38,507 bases of DNA from Candidatus Deferrimicrobiaceae bacterium (GCA_035465135.1 DATHRO010000102.1:1-38507); one strand, 5' to 3'; shown: positions 1 to 19,918, numbered from the stretch's first letter. Notes: generated by a model from the sequence alone, not told the origin. Numbers and translations: made by a program.

Positions 1-725
1 CGCGGGTCCTTCTCGACGAGGTGCTTGGCCAGCTGGACCGCACCGTTGGAGCCAAGGTGGCCCGGTGAATCGATGACCTCGGCCCCGAAGAGCGCCAGTA
101 GCTGGCGCCGCTCCATGGTGACGTTGTCCGGCAGCACGACCGCGACGCGGTAGCCCTTGCGACGGGCGATCATGGCCAGGCTGATGCCGGTGTTTCCGCT
201 CGTCGGCTCGATGATGATCGAGTCGGGCTTGAGCCGGCCCTCCCGCTCGAGCTCCTCGATGAGGTACTTGGCGACGCGGTCCTTGACCGAGCCGGTCGGG
301 TTGGCCGCCTCGAGCTTGGCCAGCAGCCGAACGGCCGAGCTCGGCGACAGGCGGCCGACCTCCACGATCGGGGTGCCGCCGATCGCGTCGTCGATGCCGT
401 CGAACCGACGCGCGGCGGCGACATCGGTCGCGGCCTGGCTGAGTGGCGCCACCGAGCCGCCGGCGATCGCCGGCAGCAGCCGGATCTCGTCGGTCGGGCC
501 GACCGGCGTCTCGAGGCCGGCGAGGTATCGGACGTCCTGGCCGTTGAGGTAGACGTTGACGAAGCGATGCAGGTCGCCATCGGGCGTCAGCAGCTGCGAG
601 GCGAGGCCCGGATGCAGATCGACGACGCCTCGGACGACGTCGCCGACGGTCCCGCCCTCGACGTCGATCGCCTTCTGGCCGTCGGCCTGCGCTCGCAGGA
701 CCGACGGCAGCCGGACGGTACTCAT
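1..725 (-). CDS. cysM: CysO-like ThiS/MoaD sulfur-carrier domain fused in frame to cysteine synthase (CysM-type, PLP-dependent). The 3' end is cut by the window edge.
   Basis: Absent from the ORF track because it runs off the window edge. The reverse-strand ATG at 725..723 overlaps the moeZ stop (ATGA). My translation is MSTVRLPSVLRAQADGQKAIDVEGG...DLHRFVNVYLNGQDVRYLAG...IRLLPAIAGG, with the GG codons at 461..456. It continues without a stop into SVAPLS...AIGGTPIVEV...KLEAANPTGSVKDR...IIEPTSGNTGISLAMIARRKGYRV...ERRQLL. The first 90 aa closely resemble mycobacterial CysO as I recall it (LHRFVN.Y.N..DVR, LP.AGG end). The remainder carries cysteine synthase PLP-fold motifs. Confidence 0.85.
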   Translation of the reverse strand, partial: MSTVRLPSVLRAQADGQKAIDVEGGTVGDVVRGVVDLHPGLASQLLTPDGDLHRFVNVYLNGQDVRYLAGLETPVGPTDEIRLLPAIAGGSVAPLSQAATDVAAARRFDGIDDAIGGTPIVEVGRLSPSSAVRLLAKLEAANPTGSVKDRVAKYLIEELEREGRLKPDSIIIEPTSGNTGISLAMIARRKGYRVAVVLPDNVTMERRQLLALFGAEVIDSPGHLGSNGAVQLAKHLVEKDP

Positions 726-1930
726 CGGGCCGCCCCGCCGGCGCCGAAGGCCCCGAGCGCGAACGGCTGGTCCGCCCCGACGACCGGTGCCGTGACGCGC
801 TCCCCGCGATCCCGCCGCGCTCGCGCGTCATCGGAGCAGATCGGGCACGCCGGGTCGCGTGCAAGGCGGAGCTCGCTGAACGAGCCGTCGAGGGCGTCGA
901 ACAGCAGCAGCCGCCCGACGAGCGGGTCGCCGATGCCGAGCAGGAGCTTGATGACCTCGTTGGCCTGGAGGAGGCCCATGATCCCGGGCACGACGCCGAG
1001 CACACCGGCAACCGAGCAGCCCGGCGCGAGCTCGGGCGGCGGCGGCGTCGGATAAAGGCAGCGATAGCACGGTCCGTCGTACGGCACGAATGTCGTCAGC
1101 TGGCCCTCGAACCGGAAGACCGACGCGTGGACCACCGGGATGCCGGCCGTGACGGCCGCGTCGTTGAGGAGGTAGCGGGTCTCGAACGTGTCGGTCCCGT
1201 CGAGGATGACGTCGTAGCCGGCGATCAGCCGCTCGACGTTGTCGGCGACGAGCATCTCGTCGTGGGCGACGACCTCCACGTCCGGGTTGAGTGCCTGGAT
1301 CGTCGTCCGCGCCGAATCGACCTTCTTCTCGCCCAGCCGCTCGGTCGAATGAATGACCTGGCGCTGGAGGTTCGACGCCTCGACGACGTCGAAGTCGACG
1401 ATGCCGAGCGTCCCGACGCCGGCCGCGGCGAGGTACAGCCCGGCCGGGCTGCCGAGACCGCCGGCGCCGATGAGCAGGACCTTTGACTCGAGCAGCTTCG
1501 CCTGGCCGGCCGAGCCGACCTCGGGGATCAGCAGGTGGCGGCTGTAGCGCTGCTGCTGGGCGGGGGTCAGCGTCGCCGGCGCCTCGATCGGCAGGCCCTC
1601 GCGATCCCAGGCCAGGATCCCGCCGGCCATGTTGACGACGTCGCGGTAGCCCATCTGCTCGAGCGTCTTGGTCGCATACGCGGAGCGCGCGCCGCTGCGG
1701 CAGTACACGACGATCGGCGTGCCGCGGTCCGGGATGGCGGCCTCGATCTGCTCCTCGAGGACGCCGCGCGGGATGAAGACCGCGCCGGGGATGTGGCCGG
1801 CGTCCCATTCGACCTGTTCGCGGACGTCCAGCAGGGTCGCGCCGGCCTTCCGGCGGTCGGCCGCCTCGGGCGCATCGACCTCGCGGATCGAGGCCTGGGT
1901 GCCTCGCAGGAGGTCGGAGGATGACTGCAT
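722..1930 (-). CDS. moeZ: MoeZ/MoeB/ThiF-type adenylyltransferase (E1-like) with an N-terminal rhodanese domain
   Basis: The N-terminus has a rhodanese active-site loop (VVYCRSGARS). It is followed by the ThiF Rossmann motif LLIGAGGLGSP and Zn-type CxxC pairs (CYRC, CPIC). The track start at 1945 is a TTG. An ATG at 1930 (MQSSSD...) has a GGAG about 9 nt upstream, so I prefer 1930. Confidence 0.85.
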   Translation of the reverse strand: MQSSSDLLRGTQASIREVDAPEAADRRKAGATLLDVREQVEWDAGHIPGAVFIPRGVLEEQIEAAIPDRGTPIVVYCRSGARSAYATKTLEQMGYRDVVNMAGGILAWDREGLPIEAPATLTPAQQQRYSRHLLIPEVGSAGQAKLLESKVLLIGAGGLGSPAGLYLAAAGVGTLGIVDFDVVEASNLQRQVIHSTERLGEKKVDSARTTIQALNPDVEVVAHDEMLVADNVERLIAGYDVILDGTDTFETRYLLNDAAVTAGIPVVHASVFRFEGQLTTFVPYDGPCYRCLYPTPPPPELAPGCSVAGVLGVVPGIMGLLQANEVIKLLLGIGDPLVGRLLLFDALDGSFSELRLARDPACPICSDDARARRDRGERVTAPVVGADQPFALGAFGAGGAAR

Positions 1931-2068
1931 CGGTGGGGACTCCAAGGTGAGAGCAGGGGACGATGATCGATCGCAGGCCCGGATCCGGATCGGGAGGCAG
2001 GGCCCGGGGCGCCGGCGGTCAGGCCGGCCGACGACACCTGCAGTGGCTCATGTCGAACATCGCGCGGC

Positions 2069-2491
2069 TCATCGACCGGGCTCGTCGGCGGCGACCGGCT
2101 TCGCGTCCGGAGCCTTGGCCTGTCCGTTCGCGCCCGCCAGCGCCCCCTGGAGCGTCTCGAGCGACAGCATCGCGCACTTCATCCGGGCCGGGCTGATCTC
2201 GATCCCGAGCAGGTCCAGGACATCCTGCGACGACATCCCGGCCGCCGTCGCGATCGGCTTGCCCTTGATCTCGTCGGTCAGCAGCGACGCAGAGGCCTGG
2301 CTGATCGCGCAGCCGCGACCCGTGAAGCCGACGCCGGCGACGACGCCGTCGGCCAGCCGCAGCTGGAGCGTGAGGCGGTCGCCGCAGAGAGGATTGGAAC
2401 CCTCCTGCGAGACCGTCGGGGCCTCGATGACCCCGAAGTTGTGGGGCCGCCGGTAGTGCTCAAGGATGTAGTCGCGGTAGAGATCGTCCAT
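2069..2491 (-). CDS. sufU: SufU/IscU-like Fe-S cluster sulfur-transfer and scaffold protein
   Basis: MDDLYRDYILEHYRRPHNFG...NPLCGD...GRGCAISQASASL...KCAMLS. This is the typical SufU three-Cys pattern, and the gene lies directly downstream of sufS. Confidence 0.85.
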   Translation of the reverse strand: MDDLYRDYILEHYRRPHNFGVIEAPTVSQEGSNPLCGDRLTLQLRLADGVVAGVGFTGRGCAISQASASLLTDEIKGKPIATAAGMSSQDVLDLLGIEISPARMKCAMLSLETLQGALAGANGQAKAPDAKPVAADEPGR

Positions 2492-2511
2492 GGCTGGCTC
2501 GGGGAGTGTAC

Positions 2512-3816
2512 TCAGTCGCCGAAGATTTGCTTGACCTCGCCGATCCCGGCGACGAGGGCATCGATGTCGGCCTCGTTCGTGTAGACGTTGAAGCTGGCGC
2601 GAGCGGTCGCCGGCACGTCGAGGCGCTCATGGAGCGGCATCGTGCAGTGATGGCCGGCCCGGACGGCAAGCCCGGAGGCGTCGAGGACCTGGGCCACGTC
2701 GTGCGGGTGGACGCCGGGGATCGTGAACGGGATGACGCCGCTCCGGACGTCGAGATCGCGCGGCCCGTATGTCACGACGTCGGGGTGGTCCCGATCGAGC
2801 GCGGCGAACGCGTACTCGAGCAGCCCGCGCTCGTGCTGATGCACGCGCTCCATGCCGAGCGTCATGAGGTACTCGGCGGCGGCGCCCAGCCCGATGGCCG
2901 CGCCGATGTCCGGGGTACCGGCCTCGAACTTCGTCGGGATCTCGTTGAACGTCGAGCGCCGGAGGTGGACCTCGCGGATCATCTCGCCGCCGGCCATGAA
3001 CGGCGGCATCGCCTCGAGCAGCTCGCGTCGAGCCCACAGCGCACCGGAGCCGGCTGGCGCCAGCATCTTGTGCCCCGAGAAGGCGTAGAAGTCGCAGCCG
3101 ATGGCCGCGATGTCGACCGCGACGTGCGGCACCGCCTGGGCACCATCGACGAGGACGAGCGCCCCGGCGTCGTGGGCCATCCGCGTCATCTCCGCGACGG
3201 GGTTGATCGTGCCGAGCGTGTTCGAGACGTGGGTGAAGGCGACCAGCTTCGGCTTCAGACGCAACAGGACCTCGAAGACGTCCTGGCGGAGGATGCCGTC
3301 GTCGGTGATCGGGATGAACTCGAGGTCGCCGTCCCTCTCCTGGGCCAGGAGCTGCCACGGCACCAGGTTCGCGTGGTGCTCCATCTCGGTCAGCACGATC
3401 GCGTCGCCCGGACCAATGTTGCGCCGACCCCAGGCGTAGGCCACGAGGTTGATTGCCTCGGTCGCGTTGCGAGTGAAGATGATCTCGTGGGCGTCGGACA
3501 CGTTGATGAACCGGGCCACCGACTCGCGCGCTGCCTCGTACGCGGCCGTGGCGCGCTCGCCGATCTCGTAGATGCCGCGGTGCACGTTGGCGCTGTACTC
3601 GCGGTAGTAGCCGTCCATCGCGTCGAGCACGGCCTGCGGCCGCAGGCTGGTCGCGGCCGAGTCGAGGTACACCAGCGGCCGGGTGCGTGCCCCGGCCGCG
3701 AGCATCGGGAAGTCGCGCCGGATGACGTCGGCGTCGAGACGGCCGTCTCGGATGCGACCGCCGAACTCGACCTGCCCGGCTGCGCCGGTCGCGGGGCGCC
3801 GCGTCGTGACCGTCAT
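2512..3816 (-). CDS. sufS: Cysteine desulfurase, SufS type (PLP, class V aminotransferase fold)
   Basis: Motifs HHANLVPWQ, FSGHKMLAPAGSGALW and RAGHHCTMPLH. I place the start at the ATG at 3816 (MTVTT...). It sits 16 nt after the sufC stop and is preceded by GGAGGAG. The track start at 3870 would overlap sufC. Confidence 0.9.
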   Translation of the reverse strand: MTVTTRRPATGAAGQVEFGGRIRDGRLDADVIRRDFPMLAAGARTRPLVYLDSAATSLRPQAVLDAMDGYYREYSANVHRGIYEIGERATAAYEAARESVARFINVSDAHEIIFTRNATEAINLVAYAWGRRNIGPGDAIVLTEMEHHANLVPWQLLAQERDGDLEFIPITDDGILRQDVFEVLLRLKPKLVAFTHVSNTLGTINPVAEMTRMAHDAGALVLVDGAQAVPHVAVDIAAIGCDFYAFSGHKMLAPAGSGALWARRELLEAMPPFMAGGEMIREVHLRRSTFNEIPTKFEAGTPDIGAAIGLGAAAEYLMTLGMERVHQHERGLLEYAFAALDRDHPDVVTYGPRDLDVRSGVIPFTIPGVHPHDVAQVLDASGLAVRAGHHCTMPLHERLDVPATARASFNVYTNEADIDALVAGIGEVKQIFGD

Positions 3817-3832
3817 CCTGCTCCTCCGCCCG

Positions 3833-4762
3833 TCAGCGGGCCGCCTCGACGCGCTCGCCGGCGCTGGCATCGGGCGTCATCTCGTCCGCCTCGTGGCCGT
3901 CGAGCTCGGGGCCCTGCGGCACGAACAGCGCCTCGTCGGGGAGGTCGATCGTCAGGCCGGCCTCGCGCATGATCGGGCCGTAGCCCTCCTCCTCCAGCCG
4001 CAGCGCCAGGTCCTTGCCGCCGCTCTTCACGATCCGGCCCTGGGCCAGGACGTGGACGACGTCCGGGGTGATGTAGTTCAGCAGCCGCTGGTAGTGGGTG
4101 ATCAGCAGGATCCCGAGCTCGGGGTTGCGCATCGCGTTCACGCCGTCGGCGACGATCCGGAGGGCGTCGATGTCGAGGCCCGAATCGGTTTCGTCGAGGA
4201 TCGCCATGGCCGGCTCGATCATCGCCATCTGGAGCATCTCGAGTCGCTTCTTCTCGCCGCCCGAGAAGCCCTCGTTGACGTAGCGCGTCGCGAAGCTCTC
4301 GTCCATCCGCAACAGCGCCAGCTTCTCGCGCATCTTGCGCCGGAAGTCGAGCATCGAGACGCCGCCGCGCATCGGGTCGGTCGGGTCGATGTCGGCCGAC
4401 TTGTCGATCCCCTGGAGCTTGGCGTTCATGGCGCTTCGAATGAACGAAGCGACGCTCAGGCCGGGGATCGCGGTCGGGTACTGGAAGGCCAGGAACATCC
4501 CGAGCCGGGCGCGCTTGTCGGGGCTGAGCTTCAGGACGTCGCGGCCCTGCCAGGTCACGTTGCCGGCCGTGACGACATACGCCGGGTGGCCCATCAGGGC
4601 GTAGGCGAGGGTCGTCTTGCCCGAGCCGTTGGGACCCATGATCGCGTGGACCTCGCCGGGCGCGACCTCGAGGTCGATGCCCTGCAGGATCTCCCGCTCG
4701 GGCGCGGCGGCTGGCGCGACGCGCAGGCCGCGAATGACGAGATTTCGATCGCTTCCGGTCAC
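3833..4762 (-). CDS. sufC: SufC Fe-S assembly ATPase (ABC-type) with a C-terminal extension of about 50 aa
   Basis: Walker A GPNGSGKTT, signature FSGGEKKR, Walker B ILDETDSGLD and H-loop ITHY. The GTG start overlaps the Rrf2 stop (GTGA at 4759-4762). Confidence 0.9.
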   Translation of the reverse strand: MTGSDRNLVIRGLRVAPAAAPEREILQGIDLEVAPGEVHAIMGPNGSGKTTLAYALMGHPAYVVTAGNVTWQGRDVLKLSPDKRARLGMFLAFQYPTAIPGLSVASFIRSAMNAKLQGIDKSADIDPTDPMRGGVSMLDFRRKMREKLALLRMDESFATRYVNEGFSGGEKKRLEMLQMAMIEPAMAILDETDSGLDIDALRIVADGVNAMRNPELGILLITHYQRLLNYITPDVVHVLAQGRIVKSGGKDLALRLEEEGYGPIMREAGLTIDLPDEALFVPQGPELDGHEADEMTPDASAGERVEAAR

Positions 4763-5283
4763 GGTGGGGTCAGGGCTCCTTCGAGCTGGGGGTCGGCCGG
4801 AGTCGCCGACCGCGCGACGCGGATCGGCGAGTCACGAGGCGGCACGAGGTCGGCCAGGGTCATCCCGTCGAGCGCGCCAGCCACGGCATCGCGCACCCGC
4901 AGCCACAGGAAGTTGACGGTGCACGACGAGGTGCGGCCGCACAGGTCGGCATGCTCGGGTGAATCGGTGGCGCAGATCATCGGCGCCAGCGGGCCCTCGA
5001 GCGCGCGCAGGATCTCGCTCATCGGGATCTCGGCGGGCGGCCGGGTCAGCTCATAGCCGCCGTGGGCGCCCCTGGTCGAGGCGACGAGGCCGGCATCACG
5101 CAGCACGAACGCGAGCTGCTCGAGGTAGGCCCGCGGCATGTCCTCGGCTGCGGCCATCTCCGCCAGCGAGGCCGGGCCCTGCCCGAAGTGTCGTCCGAGC
5201 TGAACCATCAGCCGGACGCCGTACTCGCCCTTCGTGCTGAAGGCAACGGCGCCGGTCCCGTGGAATGCGGGTCGCGTGGTCAC
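4759..5283 (-). CDS. Rrf2-family transcriptional regulator (IscR/SufR-like) with a three-Cys cluster
   Basis: The Rrf2 N-terminal wHTH region reads STKGEYGVRLMVQL...LAEMAAAEDMPRAYLEQLAFVLRDAGLVASTRGAHGGYEL. A Cys triad follows (CATDSPEHADLCGRTSSC). It is the first gene of the suf operon and starts with GTG. Confidence 0.85.
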   Translation of the reverse strand: MTTRPAFHGTGAVAFSTKGEYGVRLMVQLGRHFGQGPASLAEMAAAEDMPRAYLEQLAFVLRDAGLVASTRGAHGGYELTRPPAEIPMSEILRALEGPLAPMICATDSPEHADLCGRTSSCTVNFLWLRVRDAVAGALDGMTLADLVPPRDSPIRVARSATPADPQLEGALTPP

Positions 5284-15306: not shown

Positions 15307-16247
15307 GCGCCGCCGCGGATGAAGGCCTCGCGGTCCTCGCGCGCCCGGGCCGTCCAGGACCCGGGTCGGCCCGATCCAATCGGGCGGCCGTCGAAGCGGG
15401 TGACCGGCAGGATCCCGGCGACGCTCGAGCAGATGAAGGCCTCGTCGGCCTCGGCCAGGGCGTGGGTCGTCAGGTACTCCTCGGCCGGCTGGAGACCCAC
15501 GCCGCCGGCCCAGGCGAGGATCCACGAGCGGGTCGTGCCGGGCAGGATCGCGCAGGCCAGGCTGGGCGTCTCGAGCCGAGGACCGCGGACCAGGAACAGG
15601 TTGGCGCTGGTTGCCTCCGAGAGATACCCGTCGGTCGTCAGGAACAGTGCGTCGTCAGCGCCGGCCTGGCGGGCCTCGAGCCGCGCGTGGACATAGTCGG
15701 CCCGGCTGGTCGTCTTGAGCGCGGCGAGCGGGTTGTCGGGATCCCGTCGCACCGAGCTGACCACGAGATGGAGCCCCCGCTCGAGGTGTGCCGCCGGCAC
15801 GGGCGGGATCGGCCAGGCCTGGACGACGACCGTCGGCGGGACCTCGTCGGTCGGCAGCAGCCCCCGCGACGCGCTCGCACCACGGCTGACGGTGATGCGT
15901 ACAGATGCATCCGCCTCGGGGCCGGCGAGGCCATCCGCGGCGAGCAGGGCGTCAAGCGCCCGTCCGATTCTGGCGTTCAGGTCGGCCGGCAGATCGATCG
16001 CGAGGCCGTCGGCCGAGCGCCGCAGCCGGGCCAGGTGCTCGGATAGCTCGACGATCCGGCCGGCGCGAGCGCGCAGGGTCTCGAACACCCCGTCGCCGAG
16101 CTGGAAGCCACGGTCGAACGCCGAGAGGTGGGCGACATCGGCCGCAACGAGGCGGCCGTCGCCCTGCCCGGGGACTGCGCCGGCTCCGACCGTCCCGGAG
16201 ATCCAGACGTGGCGGCCGGCGAGCCGGTCGGGTAGGTCGTCGGTCAT
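15303..16247 (-). CDS. pabC: Class IV aminotransferase-fold protein, probably aminodeoxychorismate lyase
   Basis: FDRGFQLGDGVFETLR...RITVSRG...LKTTSRADYVHARLEA...EATSANLFLV...ILPGTTR. Its ATG overlaps the pabB stop (ATGA at 16244-16247). Confidence 0.75.
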   Translation of the reverse strand: MTDDLPDRLAGRHVWISGTVGAGAVPGQGDGRLVAADVAHLSAFDRGFQLGDGVFETLRARAGRIVELSEHLARLRRSADGLAIDLPADLNARIGRALDALLAADGLAGPEADASVRITVSRGASASRGLLPTDEVPPTVVVQAWPIPPVPAAHLERGLHLVVSSVRRDPDNPLAALKTTSRADYVHARLEARQAGADDALFLTTDGYLSEATSANLFLVRGPRLETPSLACAILPGTTRSWILAWAGGVGLQPAEEYLTTHALAEADEAFICSSVAGILPVTRFDGRPIGSGRPGSWTARAREDREAFIRGGA

Positions 16248-17668
16248 GGACGCTCCACCGCCCCGACCGCGGACAGCGGCCCACGGGCCTTGGCGACCGT
16301 CTCGGCCCACTCCTCGGCCGGGTCGCTGCGCCAGGTGATGCCGCCGCCGACGTGGAGGCTGAGTCGGGCGCCGTCGGCGACGAAGGTCCGAATCAGGATG
16401 CTCGTCTGCATCGCGCCGTCCGCTCCGATCCAGCCGGCAGCGCCTGTGTAAGGGCCGCGCCGGACGGGCTCGAGGCGCTCGAGGATCTCCATCGCCCGAA
16501 TCTTCGGGGCGCCGGTGATCGAGCCGCCCGGGAAGCTCGCAGCGAGCAGGTCGAACGGACCGAGCTCCGTTCGCAAGCGGCCGGTGACGGTGCTGACGAG
16601 GTGCTGGACGGCCGCCGTCCGCTCGAGCCGGCACAGCCGCGGGACGCGGACGCTGCCCGGCACGCAGACCCGGCCGAGGTCGTTCCGCAGGACGTCAACG
16701 ATCATCACGTTCTCGGCCCGATCCTTGGCGCTCGCCAGGAGCTCACACGCGAGCCGCCGATCAGCCTCGCGATCCCGCCCACGCGGGCGGGTGCCCTTGA
16801 TCGGGTCCGTCGCGGCCCGGCCGTGGCGAGCGAGCCCCAGGAACGGCTCCGGCGAGGCCGAGATGATCGCCCGCGGCGCGCCCGTGGCAGCGCCACGGCC
16901 GAGATCGAGATACGCGGCGAAGAGGGCCGGATCGCCGGTTCGGAGCCGCCGGTAGAGCGGCCACGGGTCGTTGCGCCACGGCGTCTCCAGGCGACGCGTC
17001 AGGTTGGCCTGGTAGATCTCGCCGCGCGCGATCTCGGCGCGGACCGCCTCGACGCCCGCCTCGAACGCCGCGCGGTCCAACCCCGATCGCAGCGAAAGCG
17101 GCTCGCGACCCGAAGGCTCCGCTGCCGCCCCGTCCGTTGCCGCGGGCGCCAGCAGCCGCTCACGCGCCCAGGCCAGGCGGGCCTCGAGCGCGTCGATCCG
17201 ATCGTCGACGGCCCGCGCCGCCAGCCAGGCACGTCCGTGGCGCCGGTCCCAGGCAACCAGCCAATCGTGCAGGGCCAGCCGCAGCAGCGGCAGATCCTGG
17301 TCGACCGCCGCGACGGACGGCAACCGCTCGAGGCGCCGGCCGAGGTCGTACGACAGGTAGCCGATGAAGCCACCGCTGAACGGCGGCGCCGCGGGATCGG
17401 CGAATCTCGCCGCCGCCAGGCGGCGCAAGGCCCGGCGCGCCGTGGCGAACGCGTCCGGTCCCTCGGCCGGTGCGTCGACGACCGCGACGGGATCGGCCGA
17501 CAGGTACGACCAGCGCGCGTTCCGACCCGGGCGCGCGCTCTCGAGGAGGGCCAGGCCCGGCAGGTCGCGCAAGCGCTCGGCCGCGTCCATCGGCGCAACG
17601 GTGTCGAGCTCAGGGATGCGCACCGCGGCGGCCCCGGGGCGAGTGGAAACAAGGCGCTCGGTGGTCAC
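16244..17668 (-). CDS. pabB: Aminodeoxychorismate synthase component I (chorismate-binding enzyme)
   Basis: GEIYQANLTRR...SASPEPFL...PIKGTRPR...AKDRAENVMIVDVLRNDLGRV...FPGGSITGAPKIRAMEI...RGPYTGAAGW. No glutamine amidotransferase gene is adjacent. GTG start. Confidence 0.85.
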   Translation of the reverse strand: MTTERLVSTRPGAAAVRIPELDTVAPMDAAERLRDLPGLALLESARPGRNARWSYLSADPVAVVDAPAEGPDAFATARRALRRLAAARFADPAAPPFSGGFIGYLSYDLGRRLERLPSVAAVDQDLPLLRLALHDWLVAWDRRHGRAWLAARAVDDRIDALEARLAWARERLLAPAATDGAAAEPSGREPLSLRSGLDRAAFEAGVEAVRAEIARGEIYQANLTRRLETPWRNDPWPLYRRLRTGDPALFAAYLDLGRGAATGAPRAIISASPEPFLGLARHGRAATDPIKGTRPRGRDREADRRLACELLASAKDRAENVMIVDVLRNDLGRVCVPGSVRVPRLCRLERTAAVQHLVSTVTGRLRTELGPFDLLAASFPGGSITGAPKIRAMEILERLEPVRRGPYTGAAGWIGADGAMQTSILIRTFVADGARLSLHVGGGITWRSDPAEEWAETVAKARGPLSAVGAVERP

Positions 17669-17746
17669 GATGGAACGATCATAGGCGGGCTCGCGAACGT
17701 GCCGGCCAGACTCCGGATGGCGCCGGCCGGAAGCTGTCCGCGCCGG

Positions 17747-18186: not shown

Positions 18187-19761
18187 TCAGAGCATCTCTC
18201 CGTGGGCCGAGCCGGTCGGCTCGCCCTCGCGCGGACGCGGCTCCTCGCCGGCGCCGTACTCGGGTGTGGCGGCCGCGGCGTCGCCCTCGGCGGCGTCGTC
18301 CTCGTCACCGGCCGCCAGGACCGGCAGTGGCCGTCCCGCCCGGCCCTCGATCGCGCCGACCCCGAACGGCACCCACTTCGACGGGTCCTGGAGGCGGTGG
18401 GCCTCGGTGTTGCCGCGGCTATGGATCTCCTCGAAACCCTTCGGCTCGATCCACATCTGCTCGCCCTCGAGCAGGCCGAGGACCCCGGACTGGCCGGGCT
18501 CCGGCCGCTCGTGCTGGCAGTAGGCGCAGGCCGCCTTGTCGTGGGCCGTGTACGCCGTCGGCTCCTCGTAGGTCGTGATGTAACCCTCGTAGTTCCGGAG
18601 CACGACCTTGTGGTCCGAGTAGCTGATCAGGTAGTTGGGCATGACCGGGATCTTGCCGCCGCCGCCGGGCGCGTCGATGACGTACGTCGGGATGGCATAG
18701 CCGGACGTGTGGCCTCGCAGGCCCTCCATGATCTCGAGGCCCTTGCCGACCGGTGTCCGGAAATGGCCGGAGCCCTCGACCAGGTCGCACTGGTACAGGT
18801 AGTACGGCCGGATCCGGTTCTCGACCATGCGATGGACCAGCGCCCGCTGGATGTGGACGCAGTCGTTGACGCCGGCCAGGAGGACGCTCTGGTTGCCGAG
18901 GGGGACGCCGGCCCGAGTCAGCTTGTCGGCCGCTCGAGCGACCTCGGGCGTGATCTCGTTGGGGTGGTTGAAGTGGAGGTTCATCCAGATCGGGTGGTAG
19001 CGGGCGAGCATCTCGCACAGCTCATCGTCGACTCGCTGCGGCAGGAACACCGGGACCCGCGTCCCGATCCGGATGATCTCGATGTGGGGGATCTCGCGAA
19101 GCCCGCGAATGATCGATTCGAGGAGCTTCGGCGCGAGCGTCAGGCCGTCACCGCCGGAGATCAGCACGTCGCGGACCTGAGGCGTCCGGCGCAGGTATTC
19201 CAGCTGGGCCTCGTGCTCGCGGCGGTTGAAGTTCTGGGTCGGGTCGCCCACGATCCGGCTGCGGGTGCAGTAACGGCAGTAGCTGGCGCACTGCGTGGTG
19301 ACCAGCATCAGGACGCGGTCCGGGTAGCGGTGCACCAGCCCCGGCACCGGCGAGTGGCGATCCTCGGCCAGCGAGTCCTCCATCATCGCCGTGAACGATT
19401 CCGCTTCGCGGCCGAGCGGGATGACCTGGCGCCGGATCGGGTCGGTCGGGTCGTCGGGGTCGATGAGGCTGGCGAAATACGGCGTGATGTCGACCCGGAA
19501 CTTGTCCTCGGCCGTGAGGCCGGCGCGTTCGTCTTCGGTCAGGTTGAGGACGGCCCCGACCTCGTCGACGGTGTTGATCCGGTGGCTGAGCTGCCAGCGC
19601 CAGTCGTCCCACTGCTCGTCGGGGACGTCGGCCCAGATCGGCGCGCGGCGGCTGCGAGCCGGCTTGCCGTCAGGCCCGAGGGCCTTGGCCGGATCGCGCG
19701 GATTGACCCACGGCTGCTCCGTCAGCGCGAGGTCGGAGTGGTGCTCGTCCTTGGCGGCCAT
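18187..19761 (-). CDS. kamA: Lysine 2,3-aminomutase (KamA-family radical SAM, PLP-dependent) with an acidic C-terminal tail
   Basis: Radical SAM CASYCRYCTRS. KamA-family blocks RQVIP, HRYPDRVL, DVLISGGDGL, IIRIGTRVPV, NHPNE, NQSVLL.GVND, YYLYQCD and GGGK. Confidence 0.9.
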   Translation of the reverse strand: MAAKDEHHSDLALTEQPWVNPRDPAKALGPDGKPARSRRAPIWADVPDEQWDDWRWQLSHRINTVDEVGAVLNLTEDERAGLTAEDKFRVDITPYFASLIDPDDPTDPIRRQVIPLGREAESFTAMMEDSLAEDRHSPVPGLVHRYPDRVLMLVTTQCASYCRYCTRSRIVGDPTQNFNRREHEAQLEYLRRTPQVRDVLISGGDGLTLAPKLLESIIRGLREIPHIEIIRIGTRVPVFLPQRVDDELCEMLARYHPIWMNLHFNHPNEITPEVARAADKLTRAGVPLGNQSVLLAGVNDCVHIQRALVHRMVENRIRPYYLYQCDLVEGSGHFRTPVGKGLEIMEGLRGHTSGYAIPTYVIDAPGGGGKIPVMPNYLISYSDHKVVLRNYEGYITTYEEPTAYTAHDKAACAYCQHERPEPGQSGVLGLLEGEQMWIEPKGFEEIHSRGNTEAHRLQDPSKWVPFGVGAIEGRAGRPLPVLAAGDEDDAAEGDAAAATPEYGAGEEPRPREGEPTGSAHGEML

Positions 19762-19918
19762 CGTGCTGTGTTTGTCTCCCGGCGGGGCCCGATGCCCGAT
19801 CGGACGCCGGCGCCCGAACGCATAAAGTCTATGCAGATTGCATGCCCGCGGATCATAGCCCGGGGGTCCCGCGGGGTCCAGCCGATCGGGCCCGCCAGGG
19901 CGGCCCTACCATCGCCGG

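Follow-up and report, generated by a model that had tools for sequence, protein, structure and literature searches.

A putative sulfur-carrier precursor in which a CysO-type protein is joined through Gly-Gly to a CysM-type cysteine synthase

In the cysteine pathway of Mycobacterium tuberculosis, a MoeZ-type E1 enzyme adenylates and thiocarboxylates the terminal glycine of the carrier CysO, CysM adds the O-phosphoserine-derived aminoacrylate to yield a CysO-cysteine adduct, and Mec+ hydrolyses the adduct (PMC3227635). Several carriers of the ThiS/MoaD fold are made with residues after their Gly-Gly. MoaX, the MoaD-MoaE fusion of M. tuberculosis, is cut at Gly82/Ser83 and is inactive when uncleaved (PMC4326299). 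DRJAMM of D. radiodurans cuts the MoaD-MoaE fusion DR2607, and archaeal JAMM enzymes cut linear SAMP fusions (PMC8832034). QbsD trims QbsE, and CxnF has been proposed to trim a decapeptide after the Gly-Gly of CxnE (PMC5925218). Iyer, Burroughs and Aravind (2006) described a type 4c neighbourhood that combines ThiS/MoaD, E1-rhodanese, JAB and cysteine synthase genes; the fusions given there are ThiS-ThiG, MoaD-MoaE and ThiS-sulfite reductase, and a ThiS-cysteine synthase fusion is absent (PMC1779556). A search of full-text literature, mostly from outside the subscription journals, found no description of a CysO-CysM fusion. The components, the chemistry and the logic of fusion plus cleavage are already known, and the CysO-CysM pairing is apparently undescribed.

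The window, by which we mean the whole stretch of DNA analysed, is an entire contig of 38,507 bp. Positions 725..3 of its minus strand form a single open frame of 241 sense codons without a stop (translation of 725..1), which runs off the contig end inside cysM; the deposited record of the product is a partial protein. The start codon ATG (725..723) shares the sequence ATGA with the TGA that ends the E1 gene upstream, and the E1 gene is translationally coupled to the fusion. A sequence-only reading of this DNA had described the first 90 codons as a CysO-like ThiS/MoaD carrier ending in LLPAIAGG, from which the frame runs on without a stop through GGC GGC TCG GTG GCG into a complete-looking cysteine synthase N-terminus. 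Domain and structure searches bear out this description in every detail that was checked. The features are collected in the table.

Table. Features of the fusion gene and of the gene cluster preceding it in the window
Feature	Coordinates	Strand	Evidence or remark
CysO-type ThiS/MoaD carrier domain, residues 1-90, end LLPAIAGG	456..725	-	Pfam ThiS, SAMP1 and CysO match
Gly89-Gly90 codons GGC GGC, would-be C-terminus of the mature carrier	456..461	-	Predicted cleavage Gly90/Ser91
Linker, about residues 91-106 (~16), SVAPLSQAATDVAAAR	408..455	-	In-frame GTG 452..450 inside
CysM-type cysteine synthase (O-phosphoserine sulfhydrylase-like), N-terminal 135 residues	3..407	-	Cut by contig end
PLP lysine K148 of the CysM part	284..282	-	Invariant in alignment A1
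E1-like activating enzyme, N-terminal rhodanese and ThiF adenylation domain	722..1945	-	Rhodanese E 6e-22, ThiF E 6e-83
SufU/NifU_N-type sulfur acceptor or scaffold	2069..2491	-	Pfam NifU_N E 2.6e-25
SufS-type cysteine desulfurase	2512..3870	-	Pfam Aminotran_5 E 5e-142
SufC-like ABC ATPase	3833..4762	-	Pfam ABC_tran E 7e-22
Rrf2-family regulator, head of the conserved cluster	4759..5283	-	Pfam Rrf2 E 1e-34

Residues 4-90 of the carrier match the entire Pfam ThiS profile (PF02597, positions 1-76 of 76, E 8.6e-11, 42.7 bits with a cut-off of 22.5), and the NCBIfam SAMP1 model (NF041918) scores 61.7 bits, over its cut-off of 60. The best match among solved structures is M. tuberculosis CysO (3DWG_C/3DWM, E 2e-19). 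Residues 3-90 align with CysO 4-93, so that Gly89-Gly90 fall on the final two residues of CysO. In the window this Gly-Gly is internal, followed by at least 151 in-frame residues, and a free C-terminal Gly-Gly would therefore be present only once proteolysis has occurred. A carrier domain whose Gly-Gly is internal has been solved in the 'MoaD related protein' of Thermus thermophilus (PDB 1V8C, 168 aa), which has the motif at residue 87 and about 80 residues after it.

The enzyme part matches positions 1-124 of the PALP profile (PF00291) over residues 111-239 (E 3e-35) and includes the PLP-binding lysine in an NPTGS(V/I)KDR motif. It gives a partial match of 153 bits to the NCBIfam cysKM model and matches CysM models too, the fragment being too short for the NCBIfam equivalog cut-offs. 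The full-length relative P0002 provides a view of the missing part. Its homologous alignment with CysM of M. tuberculosis reaches back to residue 3-5 of the latter, which indicates that the synthase N-terminus is complete and that the linker takes up only about 16 residues. P0002 scores 305 bits against M. tuberculosis CysM (3DKI/3DWG_A), compared with about 227 bits or less against CysK structures. Arg220 of M. tuberculosis CysM presumably has a role in the preference for O-phosphoserine; a GLR motif (G319 L320 R321), aligned to the ALR of M. tuberculosis, is invariant among the relatives in alignment A2, and the window stops before that region and the C-terminal tail. The AlphaFold2 model of P0002 (mean pLDDT 84) consists of two confident domains, and pLDDT falls below 50 only at residues 87-108, which comprise the Gly-Gly tail and the linker, and in one loop. 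An accessible cleavage site would be expected to show up in this way in such a model. We regard the frame in the window as a genuine CysO::CysM precursor gene.

The fusion recurs in other assemblies, which represent many uncultured bacteria. Both PF02597 and PF00291 are present in 43 of the best 120 database matches to the 241-residue query; these dual-domain proteins, which derive from assemblies of JGI, ENA, NCBI and Logan, mostly have lengths of 403-421 residues. Some have been named automatically 'cysteine synthase/molybdopterin converting factor small subunit', and annotation pipelines tag the fusions merely as PLP-dependent enzymes or cysteine synthases. Three matches that appear frameshifted (P0004, P0016, and P0029) were left aside from the fusion set. 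Across the 35 full-length fusions found in this survey, residues L84, P85, A86, A88, G89, and G90 are invariant in the alignment, and the linker that follows is 15-35 residues long and conserved neither in length nor in sequence (alignments A1 and A2). The two closest relatives, P0002 (78% identity) and P0003 (66%), have an identical in-frame junction with other nucleotide sequences and other linker lengths. The junction is shared by the window and by loci L001 (JGI) and L002 (ENA), which are independent assemblies. In P0022, a protein of 412 residues whose match spans 79% of the query, the annotated domains are ThiF (PF00899) and PALP; the entry represents either a further fusion in this system or a gene call affected by a frameshift.

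HMMs built from the fusions retrieved 80 loci from GTDB species-representative genomes, one of which is truly fused (L016, Gaiellales). Many others had looked like fusions, with matches covering residues 4-241, and were rejected when stop-to-stop ORF analysis resolved them into adjacent genes. A representative library clustered at 50% was uninformative for fusion counts, as nearly all its matches to the carrier are small proteins or fragments; it holds a few long ones, such as P0224 (472 aa). When 183 CysM domains are placed in a neighbour-joining tree, Fitch parsimony gives at least 11 changes between the fused and the unfused state, a figure that should be read as 'several' and not as a count because the tree is rough. 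Twelve separate clades of the tree consist of fused proteins only, and the largest of these has 12 distinct sequences.

The translation of the E1 gene that precedes the fusion contains a CRSGARS rhodanese loop, a GAGGLGS motif, and two CxxC motifs, and it scores 554.9 bits against NCBIfam PRK08762 (cut-off 449). L001, the closest full-length relative (78% identity), has the order Rrf2, SufC-like ATPase, SufS, SufU, Rhodanese-ThiF, fusion, and then a Prok-JAB gene, whose 173-residue product matches PF14464 (E 1e-22) and whose start overlaps the fusion stop by 7 nt. L002 shows the same arrangement, again with Prok-JAB directly downstream of the fusion. The gene order of L001, L002, L086, and L088 matches the cluster in the window, including the positions of SufU and the SufC-like ATPase. 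Loci L003, L004, and L016 have the order E1 - fusion - JAB, and L005 has the mycobacterial type of order, ClpS - DUF2017 - JAB - fusion. A JAB gene therefore adjoins the fusion in all six fused relatives with enough flanking sequence (L001-L005 and L016), and in L001, L003, and L004 it overlaps the fusion stop codon. The JAB proteins of fused relatives are related to desampylase and PfJAMM1, and their JAMM motif, E...HSH-x7-S-x2-D, is intact. Adjacency of JAB is common to fused and unfused loci alike, which makes it a property of the whole system and not a discriminator between the two states.

In the window itself, ORFs from all six frames were searched with HMMs without filtering, and the sequence was scanned for the JAMM motif. 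No JAMM gene was found, in agreement with the sequence-only reading, and no second CysO-like ORF is present in the 38.5 kb. A JAMM gene or second carrier hidden in the window was rejected on these grounds. The window lacks the JAB gene because the contig ends inside cysM. The earlier suggestion that the gene may lie past the left edge is supported by synteny with L001 and L002, according to which it should begin about 540 nt beyond the edge, immediately downstream of the fusion. No overlapping contig that would supply the left flank turned up when JGI metagenome contigs were searched for an exact match of 34 nt. In none of the fused loci is there another CysO-like gene within 4-10 kb of the fusion, and the E1 gene is retained.

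Unfused relatives place the fusion in context. Their CysM proteins match the CysM part of the window as closely as those of fused relatives do (84-85% identity). Loci L086-L088, which include the closest unfused relatives (L086 and L088), share the operon; there the carrier is a protein of its own, 91 residues long and ending in GGR-stop, and is accompanied by a CysM of 337-339 residues and a JAB gene. L086 has a SufU stop that overlaps the start of E1, and a single TAG separates its cysO and cysM, which share one frame; the N-terminal extension of its CysM and the linker in the L002 fusion are homologous. The same arrangement, with one stop between two genes in the same frame, was seen in 11 loci (L006, L008, L009, L011-L015, L017, L018, and L020). 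At such loci, a point mutation or readthrough of the stop codon would give the fusion. The fused state would appear to have been reached repeatedly, by loss of one stop codon. Residues beyond Gly-Gly are also common in free-standing carriers encoded next to or near a CysM (n = 59, L006-L082): 16 end at Gly-Gly, 35 have 1-4 extra residues, and 8 have 7-44, so that 43 of 59 carry a tail of 1-44 residues. Because of these tails, trimming after Gly-Gly looks routine and general in the CysO carrier family. By the same comparison, the fusion would be the extreme of a continuum in which most carriers are synthesised with additional residues behind their Gly-Gly.

The best explanation of these observations is that a CysO::CysM precursor is probably cut after Gly90 by the JAMM/JAB peptidase of the operon; we infer that cleavage occurs, that the JAB enzyme is the cutter, and that cysteine is the product. 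Cleavage after Gly-Gly is well supported by the invariance of the motif in the 35 fusions, the adjacency of JAB in all six relatives, and the characterised precedents. In the proposed mechanism, a single chain would be made that comprises the beta-grasp carrier, some 16 residues of disordered linker, and the PLP enzyme. A JAMM/Mec-type zinc peptidase, with its gene placed by synteny just past the contig end, would cut the Gly90-Ser91 bond. The Gly-Gly carboxylate thus exposed would be adenylated and thiocarboxylated by the adjacent rhodanese-ThiF enzyme. The freed CysM and CysO-COSH would then form the CysO-cysteine adduct, and the same peptidase would hydrolyse it. Such a fusion would guarantee co-production of carrier and enzyme at a ratio of 1:1. 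It would require no new enzyme, since the Gly-Xaa amide of the precursor and the bond in the CysO-Cys product do not differ in chemical kind, and the peptidase already cuts such an amide in its usual role. Adenylation of the ThiF type needs a free alpha-carboxylate, and the fused carrier must therefore be released. On this general chemical ground, we rejected a mechanism in cis without cleavage, which had been raised from the sequence as an alternative of unknown nature; it is not needed.

Other accounts of the locus can be weighed against the same evidence. That a lost stop codon or an indel in sequencing or assembly falsely joined adjacent genes is conceivable because many relatives have cysO and cysM in frame with a single stop between them, where one base error makes a fusion, and because the three database 'fusions' left aside do look frameshifted. 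The junction nevertheless recurs in three independent assemblies of the clade (66-78% identity) and in 12 all-fused clades, differences in linker length between fusions are always multiples of three, and the Gly-Gly is invariant in the 35 fusions. An assembly artefact was rejected for these reasons; it is very unlikely, indeed barely credible, and the fusion in the window is real and inherited. A genuine gene might instead give two products, the fusion and a separate CysM translated from the internal GTG, with the CysM part of the fusion dispensable. This codon is found where it had been reported from the sequence, two codons after Gly-Gly (codon 92), and also occurs there in L001 and L002. 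In the unfused L086, the CysM start is preceded by GGAGGC, the codons for Gly-Gly, which resemble a Shine-Dalgarno sequence. In the window, though, the glycine codons GGCGGC make a poor Shine-Dalgarno sequence just 4 nt from the GTG, and the valine after Gly-Gly is not conserved in other fusion clades. An internal start would moreover leave the need to free the C-terminus of the carrier, and we consider this account highly improbable.

The remaining alternatives concern whether the chain is cut, and by what. The beta-grasp domain could be a permanent N-terminal docking, stabilising, or regulatory module of a CysM that is never cleaved and that takes its sulfur from free sulfide or a carrier encoded elsewhere. 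M. tuberculosis CysM can also use sulfide in vitro, and the window is one contig of a genome that could encode a carrier elsewhere. Ubiquitin-like domains fused to ThiF, moreover, co-occur with a separate ThiS and probably have another role (Iyer et al., PMC1779556). An uncleaved protein would have no role for the Gly-Gly, and yet the motif is invariant in 35 of 35 fusions; E1 and JAB genes are kept beside the fusion, the neighbourhood has no further CysO-like gene, and the segment after Gly-Gly is variable and predicted to be disordered, which fits a cleavable linker and not a fixed connection between domains. A permanently fused protein is thus unlikely. Cleavage after Gly-Gly by a housekeeping protease or by self-processing, with JAB acting only on the CysO-cysteine adduct, seems a little more doubtful again. 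It gains some plausibility from MoaX, which is mis-processed in E. coli and whose cutting protease in mycobacteria had still not been identified in 2015 (PMC4326299). It is opposed by the demonstration that DRJAMM, HvJAMM1, and PfJAMM1 cut linear carrier fusions (PMC8832034), by the translational coupling of JAB to the fusion in L001, L003, and L004, and by the junction, a simple GG-S/A/T... sequence without an intein-like or autoprocessing motif. The locus could also be a zymogen-like switch, or part of a related cysteine-fed persulfide relay in which the CysM-like enzyme makes a product other than cysteine; we give this reading a small probability, similar to that of the uncleaved protein. 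As a switch, the tethered carrier without a free carboxylate would be inactive, and perhaps the synthase too, and the JAMM peptidase would license the pathway post-translationally, possibly under redox or metal-supply control. The relay is suggested by the Rrf2, SufC-like ATPase, SufS, and SufU genes, whose association with the locus is conserved. Processing of the precursor by the operon's JAMM peptidase remains our preferred reading.

The source of sulfur deserves separate comment. The CysO, CysM, and E1 genes are always preceded by Rrf2, SufC-like ATPase, SufS, and SufU genes, in the window (2069-5283, minus strand) as in L001, L002, and L086-L088. Neither the scanned ORFs nor the gene calls of the neighbourhood included a match to SufB or SufD. 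With SufS in the same operon, a desulfurase would feed cysteine synthesis, and this apparently circular flow of sulfur suggests that the true sulfur source or the end product may differ from that implied by the name of the pathway. Relatives of the operon belong, where named, to Actinomycetota or Chloroflexota MAGs. The window is labelled 'Candidatus Deferrimicrobiaceae', has a GC content of 72%, and carries genes for an F420H2-dependent quinone reductase, MMPL, a BBE-type oxidase, and a Vgb-lyase-like protein; its bin assignment may be wrong. Elsewhere in the window, close to one another and unrelated to the fusion, are a lysine-2,3-aminomutase-like radical SAM gene (18190-19905, minus strand) and a gene for anthranilate synthase component I (16247-17746, minus strand).

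Among the closest described systems is the CysO/CysM/MoeZ/Mec+ pathway of M. tuberculosis (Rv1335, Rv1336, Rv3206c, and Rv1334). The carrier in the window resembles CysO from end to end, the enzyme is closest to CysM, a rhodanese-containing E1 is encoded in the window, a JAMM peptidase is encoded in the relatives, and in L005 the genes even follow the order known from mycobacteria, ClpS - DUF2017 - Mec - CysO/CysM. Unlike in M. tuberculosis, carrier and synthase form one polypeptide with an internal Gly-Gly, and the cluster is linked to Rrf2, SufC-like ATPase, SufS, and SufU genes. The rhodanese domain of the operon-encoded E1 is N-terminal (PRK08762 type), whereas that of mycobacterial MoeZ is C-terminal. 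Compared with the type 4c neighbourhood, three of the four components are present in the window and the fourth, JAB, is present in the syntenic loci L001 and L002.

HcyS/HcyD is a pair in which a carrier with a C-terminal extension is accompanied by a JAMM peptidase. In QbsE and CxnE likewise, residues after Gly-Gly need to be removed before adenylation, and the respective clusters hold a JAMM gene (PMC5925218). Extensions of this type comprise 1-10 residues with no known function, whereas the 'extension' here amounts to an entire enzyme, about 330 residues in length. Tails after Gly-Gly on most of the free-standing CysO homologues examined matter for annotation and for recombinant expression of the carriers.

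MoaX and DR2607 share with the fusion an N-terminal ThiS/MoaD carrier joined through Gly-Gly and a flexible linker to its own partner enzyme, and the Gly/Ser junction of the window is that of MoaX. They differ in that the partner here is a PLP-dependent cysteine synthase in place of MoaE, and the CysO-CysM version is known from sequence only. So far, release of a beta-grasp carrier from a fusion precursor by a JAMM enzyme has been shown only for MoaD-MoaE. If cleavage were confirmed, the 'ubiquitin-style' precursor with JAMM release would extend to a thiocarboxylate-dependent cysteine pathway, and Mec-type peptidases would gain a natural linear substrate beside the CysO-cysteine adduct, the hydrolysis of which is the only activity characterised for them. 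The fusion overturns no mechanism. Since cleavage at Gly-Gly of a carrier fused to its partner is established for MoaD-MoaE, and extensions after Gly-Gly are common, it is best seen as a variant of a known pathway.
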